In this document: positions 9,000-63,652 of the stretch, piece by piece | Numbering within the stretch: position 1 is the stretch's first letter | Layout of the letters: every line of letters starts with the position of its first letter | Assembly: GCF_003790525.1 (NCBI RefSeq) | Contig: NZ_CP033635.1 | Direction: 5' to 3' (one strand) | DNA: 64,000 bases | Source: Escherichia coli | GTDB lineage: Bacteria > Pseudomonadota > Gammaproteobacteria > Enterobacterales > Enterobacteriaceae | Position numbers and translations under genes: made by a program | The notes under the pieces: generated by a model | What the model saw: the letters and a program-made list of their open reading frames with translations, nothing else | Told to the model about the DNA's origin: nothing | The model's database searches: none

Positions 9000-9920
9000 A
9001 TGAGCACCTTAGGTCATCAATACGATAACTCACTGGTTTCCAACGCCTTTGGTTTTTTACGCCTGCCGATGAACTTCCAGCCATATGACAGCGATGCTGA
9101 CTGGGTGATTACTGGCGTGCCGTTCGATATGGCCACTTCTGGTCGTGCGGGTGGTCGCCACGGTCCGGCAGCGATCCGTCAGGTTTCGACGAATCTGGCC
9201 TGGGAACACAATCGCTTCCCGTGGAATTTCGACATGCGTGAGCGCCTGAACGTCGTGGACTGCGGCGATCTGGTATATGCCTTCGGAGATGCCCGTGAGA
9301 TGAGCGAGAAGCTGCAGGCGCACGCCGAGAAGCTGCTGGCTGCCGGTAAGCGTATGCTCTCCTTCGGTGGTGACCACTTTGTTACGCTGCCGCTGCTGCG
9401 TGCTCATGCGAAGCATTTCGGTAAAATGGCGCTGGTACACTTTGACGCCCATACCGATACCTACGCTAACGGTTGTGAATTTGACCACGGCACCATGTTC
9501 TATACCGCGCCGAAAGAAGGTCTGATCGACCCGAATCATTCCGTGCAGATTGGTATTCGTACCGAGTTTGATAAAGACAACGGCTTTACCGTGCTGGACG
9601 CCTGCCAGGTGAACGATCGCAGCGTGGATGACGTTATCGCTCAGGTGAAACAGATTGTAGGTGATATGCCGGTTTACCTGACCTTTGATATCGACTGCCT
9701 GGATCCTGCTTTCGCGCCGGGAACCGGTACGCCAGTAATTGGCGGCCTGACCTCCGATCGCGCTATTAAACTGGTACGCGGCCTGAAAGATCTCAACATT
9801 GTTGGGATGGACGTAGTGGAAGTGGCTCCGGCATACGATCAGTCGGAAATCACCGCTCTGGCTGCGGCGACGCTGGCGCTGGAAATGCTGTATATTCAGG
9901 CGGCGAAAAAGGGCGAGTAA
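9000..9920 (+). CDS. speB: agmatinase (agmatine ureohydrolase)
   Basis: 306-aa [38 protein letters not shown]... matches SpeB; arginase-family metal-binding motifs (DAHTD, DIDCLD). Confidence 0.95.
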
Positions 9921-10070
9921 GTCATCTGCCTGGTTGAATTTTTTACACAGTCCCTTGTCTGGCACAAGGGACTTATCATTTAAAACCTATCCTGTTAATT
10001 AAGTCATCTTTACCCTGACTGCTGTTTTTTTAATGGATTGTTATTATCACGTTTTTAATGGAATAAATAG

Positions 10071-11633
10071 ATGGAACGCACTCTTCCCTGGAAGCCCCTT
10101 CTTTGTTTGTTATTTCTTTTATCAACTGGCTGCGATAGAGCAGAAAAACAGAAAATTGCCGCACAGCTGCAACAAGACAAAGAAGCTATTTCCTCTGTCG
10201 TCAAAAAGAGTTATCGCGCATTATGTGGCCCTGAGTTTGTCACCAGCACAGATTCGCACGATCGCCTTGCGGAAATGCAGCAAGTATTTACACCTGCTTT
10301 AATGGAGCCTGTACTGAAATACTGGCAAGAGTCACCCAAAACGTGTAAACGACGTTTCCCCAGTTATAGCGATCCTTCAGCGACCTTCGTCGAAGGCGAC
10401 AAGGCGCAGATTGGTGCTTTTTTTGGTCACCAATCTTATATTGATATTCCAATGGAGTTAATCCGGCAAGGGGATGGTAAATGGAAGATTACTGCGATTG
10501 ATTTTGCATCGTTACACGAGTTTGAAAAAAACGGTCGGGTTACTGGTGAGGTGCAGAAGCAAATAGATTTGCTTAAAAAACGCTCATTCAAGCAACATAG
10601 GGATTCCCCTGTGCTGACGAGGACCGCGCCAGAGCGGGTCAGTAAGTCCCCTTTGACATCGATGGAGCAAACAGTTACGGAGCAAGACTCTTCCTGGCTG
10701 GATGTCTTACTGACAATAGGCAAATATGCCCTTTATCTGGTAGCGATAATACTTATTCTCGCCTTGGTGGCTGTTTTGTGGATTGGTTATGGCCTGGTGT
10801 TCGCCGGACATCGCCTTTTCAAAGCATCCTGTAGAGATCCCTCAATTCAAAAAATTCCTGTGGCTGAACGTTGGGCAATGGCAGTCGGCGCGCCTTATGC
10901 CATTGCGGGTAACAATCACTGGGCGCGACGAGTCGTTAATGATGATTCCGTGGAAGCAGAGAATGATTGCAAAAATGAAGTGGAGTCCCTTGCTGACATG
11001 TGGGGCGTCTTTGATCGGGATTCGTTACTTGAGCAACTCTTAGCTTTGTTTGTAGCAGGACATCGTCCAGTTTATGAAGAACAGATCAAAAACGATAGCG
11101 AAATGCCGGATGCTGAATATCGCGCGTTCGCTCAGCAATTAGCTCAGAACGCGAAATCAAGTAGCGAAGCGAAAGAGCGTTTGTGGCAGCTACAGATGGT
11201 CAGAAAAAATCGACGTAAAATATGCGATATAGATTTTTGTGCCTGGGATATGGTGCGTTTTGTCATGCTATGTAATAGCGGGGCGCAAGTGGGATACATT
11301 ACCCAGCGTGAAATGGTCGATTTTTCGATGCTGGCAGCCAGACGCGTACAGCAACATTACAGAAGCTGGCGCGAATTGGCCGGGCATTTTTTGCTGGCCC
11401 GTTGGTACTGGAAAGCAACGGATAAACGGCACCTGATTACCCATATTCTTTTTAAGAAAGCCATTACATCTTTATTAGAAGAGCAGGGGAGTCCGTGGCG
11501 TACTTTACCCTGGGATACTCCATTACCTGAAGGAACAGAGACGGCTTTTGCCTGGGCTTGTGGCGTAAGCACTGCCGATGTCGTAGAGGTGCGATCGGAT
11601 ACACCAGATAAAGCAATCTACGAAGCGAATTGA
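10071..11633 (+). CDS. hypothetical lipoprotein/membrane protein (520 aa): lipobox N-terminal domain, one TM helix, Trp-rich C-terminal domain (possibly DUF1266-like)
   Basis: N-terminus MERTLPWKPLLCLLFLLSTGC (lipobox LSTGC); hydrophobic helix YALYLVAIILILALVAVLWIGYGLVFAG mid-protein; AT-rich coding sequence; not recalled at this position in K-12. Confidence 0.7.
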   Translation: MERTLPWKPLLCLLFLLSTGCDRAEKQKIAAQLQQDKEAISSVVKKSYRALCGPEFVTSTDSHDRLAEMQQVFTPALMEPVLKYWQESPKTCKRRFPSYSDPSATFVEGDKAQIGAFFGHQSYIDIPMELIRQGDGKWKITAIDFASLHEFEKNGRVTGEVQKQIDLLKKRSFKQHRDSPVLTRTAPERVSKSPLTSMEQTVTEQDSSWLDVLLTIGKYALYLVAIILILALVAVLWIGYGLVFAGHRLFKASCRDPSIQKIPVAERWAMAVGAPYAIAGNNHWARRVVNDDSVEAENDCKNEVESLADMWGVFDRDSLLEQLLALFVAGHRPVYEEQIKNDSEMPDAEYRAFAQQLAQNAKSSSEAKERLWQLQMVRKNRRKICDIDFCAWDMVRFVMLCNSGAQVGYITQREMVDFSMLAARRVQQHYRSWRELAGHFLLARWYWKATDKRHLITHILFKKAITSLLEEQGSPWRTLPWDTPLPEGTETAFAWACGVSTADVVEVRSDTPDKAIYEAN

Positions 11634-11680
11634 TGCCCCAAATGATTGAGCTTGTTTAATGACTGTGACCGGCTCTGAAT

Positions 11681-11712
11681 GAAAATTTCTCCGACATTCC
11701 TGTCGGAGAAAT
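11681..11712. terminator. bidirectional hairpin between convergent 520-aa ORF and loiP
   Basis: Inverted repeat ttctccgaca/tgtcggagaa with U-rich flank on minus strand. Confidence 0.5.
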
Positions 11713-11718
11713 ATGAAA

Positions 11719-12477
11719 TCACTTTATCCCATCCGCGCTCATACGATCGCGAATATGCTGGGCGCGTTCGGCGGATGCTGGATGGTCGTCAAACATTGAG
11801 CTTTGACGGCCTTCTTCCAGTTTTGCCAGTTTTTCAAAGCTGGTGGCAAGACCTGCCGGGCTGATGCCGCGTTGGCGCAGAAGATCGTAAGAATAATCAT
11901 CGGCTTCTGCTTCCTGGCGCTGGGAGAATTGCGAATTAACTAATTTCTCGCCCAGATCACCGAGTTGTGATTGAGATAAACTGCCGACAATCCCGCCCGC
12001 AGAGGCCGCAGCTACTCGTACGGCATTTGTACCAAGTGCCACCTGCATCCCTTTCTTCACATGGCCTAACGCTACGTGCCCCATCTCGTGACCGATCACC
12101 GCTTCGACTTCGTTATCTGTCATCATATCCATCAGCCCGCTATAGACGCGGATACAGCCGTTAGCCATTGCAAAGGCGTTCACATCCTTCGCCATATACA
12201 CTTTGTAATTCACCGGCTGACCGTTGATATTGTTGCCTAGCGCATTGGCAATAGTTGTCAGACGTTTAGCGTATTCGCTATTGGTTGGCGCAATCGTCGC
12301 CTTGCTGTCCATCTCCTGACATGCCTGATCGCTCAGGGTTTTCACCTGCGCATCACTCAAACTGTAAGCCTGAAAAGCTTCCGCTCCTGATGAGAGCAGT
12401 CCGTTGGAGTCCATATTCTGGCAACCGGTCAGTACCGTTGCCACGCTCATTGCTACCAATAAGGCGCGAATTTTCAT
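11719..12477 (-). CDS. loiP: outer-membrane M48 metalloprotease lipoprotein LoiP (YggG)
   Basis: ORF 11719..12696; internal start MKIRALLVAMSVATVLTGCQN (lipobox) and HEMGH zinc motif; 252 aa. Confidence 0.9.
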   Translation of the reverse strand: MKIRALLVAMSVATVLTGCQNMDSNGLLSSGAEAFQAYSLSDAQVKTLSDQACQEMDSKATIAPTNSEYAKRLTTIANALGNNINGQPVNYKVYMAKDVNAFAMANGCIRVYSGLMDMMTDNEVEAVIGHEMGHVALGHVKKGMQVALGTNAVRVAAASAGGIVGSLSQSQLGDLGEKLVNSQFSQRQEAEADDYSYDLLRQRGISPAGLATSFEKLAKLEEGRQSSMFDDHPASAERAQHIRDRMSADGIK

Positions 12478-41334: not shown

Positions 41335-41480
41335 GTAACGGTAAAGCCCTCACCGAAGCGAGGGCTTGAAGGAGAAGGGTTATGATGCGACTTGTCATCA
41401 TACTGATTGTACTGTTACTCATAAGTTTCCCAGCTTATTAACAGTCAGTCTCAGGGGAGGAGTCATCCTCCCTTACCCTT
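41335..41480 (-). ncRNA. sibC: SibC (RygC) antisense sRNA, antitoxin to ibsC; ends approximate
   Basis: Antisense to ibsC; candidate minus-strand promoter TTGACA-N17-TAATTT around 41488..41516; 3' end not resolved. Confidence 0.4.
41382..41441 (+). CDS. ibsC: type I toxin, Ibs family small hydrophobic peptide (19 aa)
   Basis: Hand translation: MMRLVIILIVLLLISFPAY, stop TAA; SD ggagaagggtt upstream; in serA-fau intergenic region where K-12 carries ibsC/sibC. Confidence 0.7.
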   Translation: MMRLVIILIVLLLISFPAY

Positions 41481-41541
41481 ACTCACTAAATTAGGTTAAA
41501 GAATCAACGATGTCAATCAGGGCGATGCAGGTGTGTCGCCC

Positions 41542-42162: not shown

Positions 42163-42348
42163 AGGGAATCTCCGAGATGCCGCCGCAGGCTGTAACCCTT
42201 GAACCCTTGGTTCAAGGTGAATGTGTCGTCGCAGTTTTAAGGCTTCTCGGACGGACCGAGCATGCTCACCAACCGCGGAGCGCCACATTCTTGTGGTATG
42301 AAATATCGGCTCAGGGGACTGGCCCGCTTGCGAACATCTCAGAGAAAT
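42163..42348 (-). ncRNA. ssrS: 6S RNA
   Basis: Minus strand reads AUUUCUCUGAGAUGUUCGCAAGCGGGCCAGUCCCCUGAGCCGAUAUUUCAUACCACAAGAAUGUGGCGCUCCGCGG...GGAGAUUCCCU, matching remembered 6S RNA; directly upstream of fau. Confidence 0.9.
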
Positions 42349-59202: not shown

Positions 59203-60936
59203 GTGAAACAACAGATACAACTTCGTCGCCGTGAAGTCGATGAAACGGCAGACTTGCCCGCTGAATTGCCTCCCTTGCTGCGCCGTTTATACGCCAGCCG
59301 GGGCGTGCGCAGTGCGCAAGAACTGGAACGCAGTGTTAAAGGGTTGCTGCCCTGGCAGCAACTGAGCGGCGTCGAAAAGGCCGTTGAGATCCTTTACAAC
59401 GCTTTTCGCGAAGGAACGCGGATTATTGTGGTCGGTGATTTCGACGCCGACGGGGCCACCAGCACGGCTCTAAGCGTGCTGGCGATGCGCTCGCTTGGTT
59501 GCAGCAATATCGACTACCTGGTTCCAAACCGTTTCGAAGACGGTTACGGCTTAAGCCCGGAAGTAGTCGATCAGGCTCATGCCCGTGGCGCGCAGTTAAT
59601 TGTCACGGTGGATAACGGTATTTCCTCCCATGCGGGGGTTGAACACGCTCGTTCGTTGGGCATTCCGGTTATTGTTACCGATCACCATTTGCCAGGCGAC
59701 ACATTACCCGCAGCGGAAGCGATCATTAACCCTAACTTGCGCGACTGTAATTTCCCGTCGAAATCACTGGCAGGCGTGGGTGTGGCGTTTTATCTGATGC
59801 TGGCTCTGCGCACCTTTTTGCGCGATCAGGGCTGGTTTGATGAGCGCGGCATCGCAATTCCTAATCTGGCAGAACTGCTGGATCTGGTCGCGCTGGGGAC
59901 AGTGGCGGACGTCGTACCGCTGGACGCTAATAATCGCATTCTGACCTGGCAGGGGATGAGTCGCATCCGTGCCGGTAAGTGCCGTCCGGGGATTAAAGCG
60001 CTGCTGGAAGTGGCAAATCGCGATGCGCAAAAACTCGCCGCCAGCGATTTAGGTTTTGCGCTGGGGCCACGTCTCAATGCTGCCGGGCGACTGGACGATA
60101 TGTCCGTTGGCGTGGCGCTGTTGCTGTGCGACAACATCGGCGAAGCGCGCGTGCTGGCAAATGAACTCGATGCGCTAAACCAGACGCGAAAAGAGATCGA
60201 ACAGGGAATGCAAGTTGAGGCCCTGACCTTGTGCGAGAAACTGGAGCGCAGCCGCGACACACTACCCGGCGGGCTGGCAATGTATCACCCCGAATGGCAT
60301 CAGGGCGTTGTCGGTATTCTGGCTTCGCGCATCAAAGAGCGTTTTCACCGTCCGGTTATCGCCTTTGCGCCAGCAGGTGATGGTACGCTGAAAGGTTCCG
60401 GTCGCTCCATTCAGGGGCTACATATGCGTGATGCGCTGGAGCGGTTAGACACACTCTACCCCGGCATGATGCTGAAGTTTGGCGGTCATGCGATGGCGGC
60501 AGGCCTGTCGCTGGAAGAGGATAAATTCGAACTCTTTCAGCAACGGTTTGGCGAACTGGTTACTGAGTGGCTGGACCCTTCGCTATTGCAGGGCGAAGTG
60601 GTGTCAGATGGTCCGCTAAGCCCAGCCGAAATGACCATGGAAGTGGCGCAGCTGTTGCGCGATGCTGGCCCGTGGGGGCAGATGTTCCCGGAGCCGCTGT
60701 TTGATGGTCATTTCCGTCTGCTGCAACAGCGGCTGGTGGGCGAGCGTCATTTGAAAGTCATGGTCGAGCCGGTCGGCGGCGGTCCACTGCTGGACGGGAT
60801 TGCTTTTAATGTCGATACCGCCCTCTGGCCGGATAACGGTGTGCGCGAAGTGCAACTGGCTTACAAGCTCGATATCAACGAGTTTCGCGGCAACCGCAGC
60901 CTGCAAATTATCATCGACAATATCTGGCCAATTTAG
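59203..60936 (+). CDS. recJ: single-stranded-DNA-specific 5'-3' exonuclease RecJ
   Basis: 577-aa ORF, GTG start; DHH motifs (VVGDFDADG, DHH). Confidence 0.92.
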   Translation: MKQQIQLRRREVDETADLPAELPPLLRRLYASRGVRSAQELERSVKGLLPWQQLSGVEKAVEILYNAFREGTRIIVVGDFDADGATSTALSVLAMRSLGCSNIDYLVPNRFEDGYGLSPEVVDQAHARGAQLIVTVDNGISSHAGVEHARSLGIPVIVTDHHLPGDTLPAAEAIINPNLRDCNFPSKSLAGVGVAFYLMLALRTFLRDQGWFDERGIAIPNLAELLDLVALGTVADVVPLDANNRILTWQGMSRIRAGKCRPGIKALLEVANRDAQKLAASDLGFALGPRLNAAGRLDDMSVGVALLLCDNIGEARVLANELDALNQTRKEIEQGMQVEALTLCEKLERSRDTLPGGLAMYHPEWHQGVVGILASRIKERFHRPVIAFAPAGDGTLKGSGRSIQGLHMRDALERLDTLYPGMMLKFGGHAMAAGLSLEEDKFELFQQRFGELVTEWLDPSLLQGEVVSDGPLSPAEMTMEVAQLLRDAGPWGQMFPEPLFDGHFRLLQQRLVGERHLKVMVEPVGGGPLLDGIAFNVDTALWPDNGVREVQLAYKLDINEFRGNRSLQIIIDNIWPI

Positions 60937-61026
60937 CGTCATCTTCTCTATAAAAAAGAGCGTGGATTGGGTACAATCCCGCTCTTATCACCGCATTTTG
61001 ACTAGCTCAATAAAAGAAATCAGACC

Positions 61027-62125
61027 ATGTTTGAAATTAATCCGGTAAATAATCGCATTCAGGACCTCACGGAACGCTCCGACGTTCTTAGGGGGTATCT
61101 TTGACTATGACGCCAAGAAAGAGCGTCTGGAAGAAGTAAACGCCGAGCTGGAACAGCCGGATGTCTGGAACGAACCCGAACGCGCACAGGCGCTGGGTAA
61201 AGAGCGTTCCTCCCTCGAAGCCGTTGTCGACACCCTCGACCAAATGAAACAGGGGCTGGAAGATGTTTCTGGTCTGCTGGAACTGGCTGTAGAAGCTGAC
61301 GACGAAGAAACCTTTAACGAAGCCGTTGCTGAACTCGACGCCCTGGAAGAAAAACTGGCGCAGCTTGAGTTCCGCCGTATGTTCTCTGGCGAATATGACA
61401 GCGCCGACTGCTACCTCGATATTCAGGCGGGGTCTGGCGGTACGGAAGCACAGGACTGGGCGAGCATGCTTGAGCGTATGTATCTGCGCTGGGCTGAATC
61501 GCGTGGTTTCAAAACTGAAATCATTGAAGAGTCGGAAGGTGAAGTGGCGGGTATTAAATCCGTGACGATCAAAATCTCCGGCGATTACGCTTATGGCTGG
61601 CTGCGTACAGAAACCGGCGTTCACCGCCTGGTGCGTAAGAGCCCGTTTGACTCCGGCGGTCGTCGCCACACGTCGTTCAGCTCCGCGTTTGTTTACCCGG
61701 AAGTTGATGATGATATCGATATCGAAATCAATCCGGCGGATCTGCGCATCGACGTTTATCGCGCATCCGGCGCGGGCGGTCAGCACGTTAACCGTACCGA
61801 ATCTGCGGTGCGTATTACTCACATCCCAACCGGGATCGTGACTCAGTGCCAGAACGACCGTTCCCAGCACAAGAACAAAGACCAGGCCATGAAGCAGATG
61901 AAAGCGAAGCTTTATGAACTGGAGATGCAGAAGAAAAATGCCGAGAAACAGGCGATGGAAGATAACAAATCCGACATCGGCTGGGGCAGCCAGATTCGTT
62001 CTTATGTCCTTGATGACTCCCGCATTAAAGATCTGCGCACCGGGGTAGAAACCCGCAACACGCAGGCCGTGCTGGACGGCAGCCTGGATCAATTTATCGA
62101 AGCAAGTTTGAAAGCAGGGTTATGA
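61027..62125 (+). CDS. prfB: peptide chain release factor 2; requires programmed +1 frameshift (join 61027..61101, 61103..62125)
   Basis: ATG 61027 encodes [25 protein letters not shown] then in-frame TGA at 61102; +1 frame continues [25 protein letters not shown]... to stop 62125; GGQ motif present (SGAGGQHVN). Confidence 0.92.
61090..61105 (+). other. prfB +1 frameshift site with upstream SD-like stimulator (AGGGGG UAU CUU UGA C)
   Basis: agggggtatctttgac read directly from sequence. Confidence 0.9.
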
Positions 62126-62134
62126 GGAACCAAC

Positions 62135-63652
62135 ATGTCTGAACAAAACGCACAGGGCGCTGACGCGGTAGTCGATCTTAACAATGAACTGAAAACGCGT
62201 CGTGAGAAGCTGGCGAACCTGCGCGAGCAGGGGATTGCCTTCCCGAACGATTTCCGTCGCGATCATACCTCTGACCAATTGCACGCAGAATTCGACGGCA
62301 AAGAGAACGAAGAACTGGAAGCGCTGAACATCGAAGTCGCCGTTGCTGGCCGCATGATGACCCGTCGTATTATGGGTAAAGCGTCTTTCGTTACCCTGCA
62401 GGACGTTGGCGGTCGCATTCAGCTGTACGTTGCCCGTGACGATCTGCCGGAAGGCGTTTATAACGATCAATTCAAAAAATGGGACCTTGGTGACATCCTC
62501 GGCGCGAAAGGTAAACTGTTCAAAACCAAAACCGGCGAACTGTCTATCCACTGTACCGAGCTGCGTCTGCTGACCAAAGCACTGCGTCCGCTGCCGGATA
62601 AATTCCACGGCTTGCAGGATCAGGAAGCGCGCTATCGTCAGCGTTATCTGGATCTCATCTCTAACGATGAATCCCGCAACACCTTTAAAGTGCGCTCGCA
62701 GATCCTCTCTGGTATTCGCCAGTTCATGGTGAACCGCGGCTTTATGGAAGTTGAAACGCCGATGATGCAGGTGATCCCTGGCGGTGCCGCTGCGCGTCCG
62801 TTTATCACTCACCATAACGCGCTGGATCTCGACATGTACCTGCGTATCGCGCCGGAACTGTACCTCAAGCGTCTGGTGGTCGGTGGCTTCGAGCGTGTAT
62901 TCGAAATCAACCGTAACTTCCGTAACGAAGGTATTTCCGTACGTCATAACCCAGAGTTCACCATGATGGAACTCTATATGGCTTACGCAGATTACAAAGA
63001 TCTGATCGAGCTGACCGAATCGCTGTTCCGTACTCTGGCACAGGATATTCTCGGTAAGACGGAAGTGACCTACGGCGACGTAACGCTGGACTTCGGTAAA
63101 CCGTTCGAAAAACTGACCATGCGTGAAGCGATCAAGAAATATCGCCCGGAAACCGACATGGCGGATCTGGACAACTTCGACTCTGCGAAAGCGATTGCTG
63201 AATCTATCGGCATCCACGTTGAGAAGAGCTGGGGTCTGGGCCGTATCGTTACCGAGATCTTCGAAGAAGTGGCAGAAGCACATCTGATTCAGCCGACCTT
63301 CATTACTGAATATCCGGCAGAAGTTTCTCCGCTGGCGCGTCGTAACGACGTTAACCCGGAAATCACAGACCGCTTTGAGTTCTTTATCGGTGGTCGTGAA
63401 ATCGGTAACGGCTTTAGCGAACTGAATGACGCGGAAGATCAGGCGCAGCGCTTCCTGGATCAGGTTGCCGCGAAAGATGCAGGTGACGACGAAGCGATGT
63501 TCTACGATGAAGATTACGTCACCGCACTGGAACATGGCTTACCGCCGACAGCAGGTCTGGGAATTGGTATCGACCGTATGGTAATGCTGTTCACCAACAG
63601 CCATACCATCCGCGACGTTATTCTGTTCCCGGCGATGCGTCCGGTAAAATAA
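62135..63652 (+). CDS. lysS: lysyl-tRNA synthetase (constitutive)
   Basis: 505-aa [36 protein letters not shown] matches LysS. Confidence 0.95.

Follow-up and report, generated by a model that had tools for sequence, protein, structure and literature searches.

The prfB gene in a 64,000-nucleotide stretch of Escherichia coli DNA (the window) carries an in-frame stop that we read, with a probability of about 98%, as part of the programmed +1 ribosomal frameshift site by which release factor 2 (RF2), the prfB product, autoregulates its synthesis in E. coli. The site is already known and ordinary: it is a textbook E. coli recoding site found in a non-K-12 strain. Papers that treat it (PMC12421855 and PMC5373646) credit its first description, in the 1980s, to Craigen and Caskey. 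Recoding in prfB has been characterized in E. coli over decades, and a recent survey covered more than 12,000 genomes (PMC12421855); nothing here extends that work. Among examples of translational autoregulation through recoding, prfB is the textbook one, and the value of recognizing the site lies in correct annotation. If the shift were not modeled, annotation would break this essential RF2 gene into a 25-amino-acid open reading frame (ORF) and a truncated 293-amino-acid ORF or would call it a pseudogene.

The frameshift site and the joined product

The initial annotation had frame 0 of prfB ending at a UGA after 25 codons and placed an AGGGGG motif three nucleotides upstream of CUU UGA C. 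A scripted coordinate check bore this out: the in-frame TGA is codon 26 of the ORF that begins with the ATG at 61027, and each element lies where it had been placed (Table 1). Within 61027-62125, the DNA near the site reads CTT AGG GGG TAT CTT TGA C TAT GAC. All four cis elements listed as defining for such sites are present, namely, the purine-rich Shine-Dalgarno (SD)-like element, the 3-nucleotide spacing to CUU that puts this element 6 nucleotides ahead of the stop, the slippery sequence CUU U, and the leaky stop context UGA-C (PMC12421855). The stop in such sites is RF2 specific and lies near codon 26; it is UGA, rarely UAA, and never UAG (PMC12421855).

The 16-mer AGGGGGNNNCTTTGAC occurs a single time in the 64-kb window even when one mismatch is allowed, compared with 0.06 occurrences expected from shuffled sequence (100 shuffles, 6 of which had one match). 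The cassette sits at codon 26 of an RF2 gene and is conserved in distantly related bacteria, which puts it well beyond chance.

When the shift is not modeled, prfB is listed as two ORFs, as the initial annotation had predicted: 61027..61104 (25 amino acids) and 61244..62125 (293 amino acids, starting at the earliest +1-frame ATG). A scripted check showed that the +1 frame, in phase with 61103, stays open from 61049 through 62125, and no ATG, GTG, or TTG was found in this frame from 61049 until 61244. Joining 61027..61101 to 61103..62125 gives 1,098 nucleotides, or 365 codons plus a stop. The claim that the +1 frame runs into the full RF2 body therefore stands, as the joined product is full-length RF2 of 365 amino acids, and the proposed join matches the joined prfB coding sequence (CDS) that RefSeq gives for 100%-identical DNA.

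Table 1. Positions of the elements of the prfB frameshift site, the neighboring genes, and the structured RNAs in the window
Feature	Position	Strand	Remark
prfB frame-0 segment	61027..61101	+	ATG plus 24 more sense codons, the last being Leu25 (CTT)
Internal Shine-Dalgarno-like element AGGGGG(U)	61090..61096 (AGGGGG, 61090-61095)	+	Pairing with the anti-SD predicted
3-nt spacer TAT (Tyr24) between SD-like element and slippery codon	61096..61098	+	
Slippery CUU U: Leu25 codon CTT (61099-61101) and first base of the stop	61099..61102	+	61102 is the skipped base in the proposed shift
In-frame RF2-specific stop UGA (61102-61104) followed by C (61105)	61102..61105	+	Weak context UGAC
prfB +1-frame segment, Asp26 to Leu365	61103..62125	+	Stop TGA at 62123-62125
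Second frame-0 TGA, two codons past the first	61108..61110	+	Arises from Tyr27 TAT
recJ, upstream neighbor	59203..60936	+	90-nt intergenic region to prfB
lysS (lysine--tRNA ligase)	62135..63652	+	9 nt past the prfB stop
6S RNA (ssrS)	42165..42348	-	Rfam, 139.8 bits
SIB antitoxin RNA	41366..41516	-	Rfam, 136.5 bits

The joined protein has the properties of RF2. It scored 525.9 bits against TIGR00020, the NCBIfam prfB model (cutoff, 370), while the RF1 models gave 304 to 306 bits, under their own cutoffs of 400 to 423. The Pfam domains PCRF (PF03462) and RF-1 (PF00472) cover residues 31 to 219 and 228 to 337, respectively, and SPF and GGQ are found at residues 205 and 250. These are the defining RF2 motifs, SPF being the stop codon recognition tripeptide and GGQ the catalytic motif. 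The protein aligns from residue 1 to 365 with residues 1 to 365 of crystallized E. coli RF2 (PDB 1gqe; E = 8e-241), with L298V as the sole difference. The 25-residue leader peptide is identical to residues 1 to 25 of the crystallized protein, and the alignment passes straight through the junction between RGYL and DYDAKK. The exact protein sequence is recorded as "peptide chain release factor 2" (NCBI; UniRef RF2_ECO27) for at least 500 contigs, although most PDB and database proteins go back to one and the same gene model and so cannot count as fully independent evidence for the junction. Independent support for the junction is, from comparison of sequences, the evolutionary signal, that is, the conservation of the cassette and the phase of substitutions.

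Conservation in E. coli and in distant bacteria

The segment 60900-62200 (1,301 bases) matches many complete E. coli chromosomes at 100% identity and was found once in 5,425 of 5,426 complete genomes of the species, the median being a single place in each. In NZ_CP066806.1, the equivalent span lies between recJ and lysS and is annotated with a two-piece joined prfB CDS that is named "peptide chain release factor 2" and noted as a "programmed frameshift," and prfB of K-12 MG1655 is likewise annotated as a joined CDS with a programmed frameshift.

We compared the gene with that of K-12. The two share the 16-nucleotide cassette AGGGGGTATCTTTGAC, the 42 nucleotides upstream of the stop, all 25 leader residues, the join of 75 to 1,023 nucleotides, the recJ-prfB-lysS context, and the "programmed frameshift" annotation in RefSeq. 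They differ at 15 nucleotides over the 1,099-nucleotide gene. One difference is nonsynonymous: codon 246 (61762..61764) encodes Ala here, in contrast to the K-12-specific Thr246, and this is the only amino acid difference from K-12 RF2. Ala246 is the canonical, more active form of RF2 and is the E. coli B-type allele (PMC5373646). Thus, the presence of Ala246 rather than Thr246 places the window in a non-K-12 E. coli lineage.

Within the 70 nucleotides around the site, the lone difference from K-12 is a synonymous T/C at 61108, where Tyr27 is TAT in the window and TAC in K-12. The TAT codon creates a second frame-0 stop, CTA TGA (61105..61110); Salmonella, like K-12, has TAC. The second frame-0 UGA is also found in Proteus and Aeromonas, and Legionella has CTT TGA at this place. 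This second stop would cap any product of read-through at the first UGA. Together, Ala246 and the second UGA might conceivably give a slightly different autoregulatory set-point, or a read-through fail-safe, relative to the K-12 allele, although we consider this unlikely. If true, the effect would add only a small quantitative refinement to a known mechanism and would not be a new mechanism. The K-12 allele is the basis of nearly all prfB experiments.

To look beyond E. coli, we used a sample of 14 phylogenetically spread prfB loci obtained by tblastn of a plasmid and chromid collection. The sample covers Gamma-, Beta-, and Alphaproteobacteria and Bacillota and includes Neisseria gonorrhoeae and Sulfurovum mangrovi. 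Several of the "plasmid" records with prfB matches are 2 to 5 Mb long and appear to be mislabeled chromosomes. The pattern RGGRGG-N3-CTT-TGA-C is present at the same place in 12 of the 14 loci (Salmonella, Proteus, Aeromonas, Legionella, Acinetobacter, Ralstonia, Tistrella, Methylobacterium, Sinorhizobium, Listeria, Priestia, and Latilactobacillus). All 12 have a leader ORF of approximately 23 to 27 codons up to that stop with the RF2 body in the +1 frame, and the 3-nucleotide spacing from the SD-like element to CTT is identical in every one. In a stop-anchored alignment of 13 sequences, CTTTGAC and GG.GG were invariant. Mean identity to the majority base was 0.93 in the cassette compared with 0.63 in the flanks, and third codon positions were 85 to 100% conserved inside the cassette compared with 31 to 77% outside it. 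The conservation of third positions within the cassette therefore demonstrates selection on the nucleotide sequence and not merely on the encoded Arg-Gly-Tyr-Leu-Asp.

The site in the window matches the prfB cassette consensus AGGGGG-N3-CTTTGA-C, with the stop, the 3-nucleotide spacing, and the following C all canonical. The alphaproteobacterial and Ralstonia copies differ in having AGGAGG or CGGAGG as the SD-like element instead of AGGGGG, and the Firmicutes leader has 24 codons rather than 25. In Neisseria and Sulfurovum, an orthologous RF2 that includes the N-terminal segment is encoded by one uninterrupted ORF, and at the homologous place in these two genes we found neither an SD-like element nor CTTT nor a stop within the gene. 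Judged from these genes, the two are example lineages without the autoregulatory prfB frameshift. In a survey of 12,753 genomes, the cassette was present in 64%, and Actinomycetota prfB is also unshifted (PMC12421855).

The pattern of substitutions also changes at the site. In comparisons with Salmonella, Proteus, Aeromonas, and Legionella, 42 of 82 substitutions upstream of the site fell on third positions of frame 0, and directly downstream, 82 of 126 fell on third positions of the +1 frame; chi-square values for this comparison of phase are illustrative only, because the four comparisons share the window sequence. The switch in substitution phase from frame 0 to +1 shows that the translated frame changes there.

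Mechanism and alternative explanations

The SD-like element and the 3' tail of 16S rRNA are predicted to form a 7-bp duplex of -10.7 kcal/mol; the regions ahead of the prfB start and of lysS give far weaker values of -1.3 and -6.3 kcal/mol, respectively. The anti-SD sequence used for these energies is textbook knowledge. A downstream hairpin or pseudoknot was considered as a stimulatory element and rejected, since the fold of 61060-61180 had a z score of -0.97 and 37 of 200 shuffled sequences folded as well. The absence of a predicted stimulatory structure is in keeping with a mechanism that would need none. An Rfam scan of the whole window at gathering thresholds found no family at the frameshift site and no SECIS match.

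Because the cassette is identical to that of K-12, we infer that the K-12 mechanism applies here. By this analogy the strain would be expected to shift, and the view of the site as the classic autoregulatory frameshift is supported. Translation would begin at the ATG at 61027 and proceed through 25 codons of frame 0. Once CUU (Leu25) occupied the P site, UGA in its weak UGA-C context would be in the A site, and AGGGGGU, three nucleotides upstream of CUU, could pair with the 16S anti-SD. From the K-12 literature (PMC12421855), abundant RF2 would recognize the UGA and release a 25-residue peptide. If RF2 were scarce, the ribosome would pause at the UGA, and the SD:anti-SD duplex, lying close to the P site, would destabilize or displace the E-site tRNA (PMC12421855). 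The peptidyl-tRNA-Leu would then re-pair from CUU to UUU, so that U61102 would be skipped and GAC (Asp26) would be read next (PMC12421855). Translation would go on to 62125 and yield the 365-amino-acid RF2, and RF2 would thereby limit its own synthesis. Ribosome profiling of MG1655 put frameshifting at approximately 28% for the native locus and approximately 21% for the Ala246 allele, the type found in the window (PMC5373646).

We considered whether the stop might not be programmed at all. prfB would be a pseudogene if the interruption came from a true frameshift mutation or from an error in sequencing or assembly; an indel error could produce one extra base in a run such as CTTT, and the unmodeled gene does show as two ORFs. 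However, the 70 bases around the site are present at at least 95% identity, in one copy each, in 5,422 of 5,426 independently assembled complete E. coli genomes, and the same interruption with its flanking motif recurs in 12 of the 14 distant bacteria. The sequencing error that the initial annotation had named as the finding that would overturn it is thereby excluded. RF2 is needed to read UGA, and the E. coli genomes hold no second prfB copy (median, one place each), so that we regard a pseudogene or an error as extremely improbable. The same low standing applies to two independent cistrons, a 25-amino-acid leader and a shorter RF2 initiated at the ATG at 61244. These are exactly the two ORFs in the list, but the +1 frame holds none of the three start codons between 61049 and 61244, and the segment 61103-61243 evolves as +1-frame coding sequence, with the third-position excess given above and with its amino acids kept from Salmonella to Legionella. 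Moreover, the crystallized RF2 includes residues 1 to 72 and hence 26 to 72, and residues 1 to 25 are also conserved at the protein level; in Neisseria and Sulfurovum, whose prfB is unshifted, they run directly into the body of the protein.

Two further alternatives concern how the stop is passed. A transcriptional slippage that deleted one U or G would restore the frame in the RNA and not on the ribosome, and short homopolymer runs (GGGGG and TTT) are present. Such slippage normally needs runs of about seven or more A or T, and a conserved SD-like element at a fixed 3-nucleotide spacing, an RF2-specific stop, and the following C fit only a ribosomal mechanism that senses RF2. In addition, profiling density in K-12 is lower past the site, in line with termination competing with the shift (PMC5373646). 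We therefore think slippage in the transcript exceedingly unlikely. The chance that the UGA is decoded in frame, whether by read-through or as Trp, Cys, or selenocysteine with no frameshift to bypass it, is close to nil. UGA-C is a leaky context (PMC12421855), but frame 0 past the UGA encodes one Leu before it meets the UGA at 61108-61110 and does not encode RF2; there is also no structured element after the site (the z score of -0.97 above) and no Rfam SECIS match. The programmed +1 ribosomal frameshift thus remains our reading of the site, and no feature of the sequence speaks against it.

Gene neighborhood and other features of the window

The gene order recJ-prfB-lysS is that of E. coli. 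The stop of prfB itself is the RF2-specific TGA and is followed by G. The lysS SD sequence GAGGAA overlaps this stop, with the lysS ATG 9 nucleotides downstream (62123..62137). This arrangement suggests a tight translational linkage of the prfB-lysS pair.

We found no strong sigma-70 promoter match in the recJ-prfB spacer and almost no SD complementarity upstream of the prfB start. A promoter and terminator scan of 60700-62300 gave one promoter-like site, which lies inside the coding region and is at or below the number expected from shuffles. The spacer also holds a 6-bp hairpin, GGATTG-ggta-CAATCC, at 60964..60979. It is terminator-like on the minus strand only, where it has a short T-rich tail, and is no commoner than in shuffles.

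The window as a whole is the speA-to-idi region of E. coli. A tRNA scan of the window found no tRNA genes, and the only Rfam matches in the whole window at gathering thresholds were the 6S RNA and the SIB RNA (Table 1). The SIB RNA lies opposite a short ORF for the type I toxin ibsC, which is annotated at the same coordinates in a genome with identical context.

A 520-amino-acid ORF (10071..11633, plus strand) lies within 9921..11720, between speB (9000..9920) and loiP, and is annotated as "DUF1266 domain-containing protein" in identical E. coli genomes. The full 9800-11800 segment is present in just 210 of the 5,426 complete E. coli genomes. Collinearity of the whole window with strain TCM3e1 was rejected after 31,220 apparent mismatches were obtained; BLAST traced these to a different speB-loiP insert, far from prfB. 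At this spot, TCM3e1 has a block of approximately 7.6 kb containing dagR, PTS, and dgaE-dagF genes. Since the DUF1266 ORF stands in the window where TCM3e1 has the dagR/PTS/dgaE-dagF block, the speB-loiP interval is a variable insertion point.
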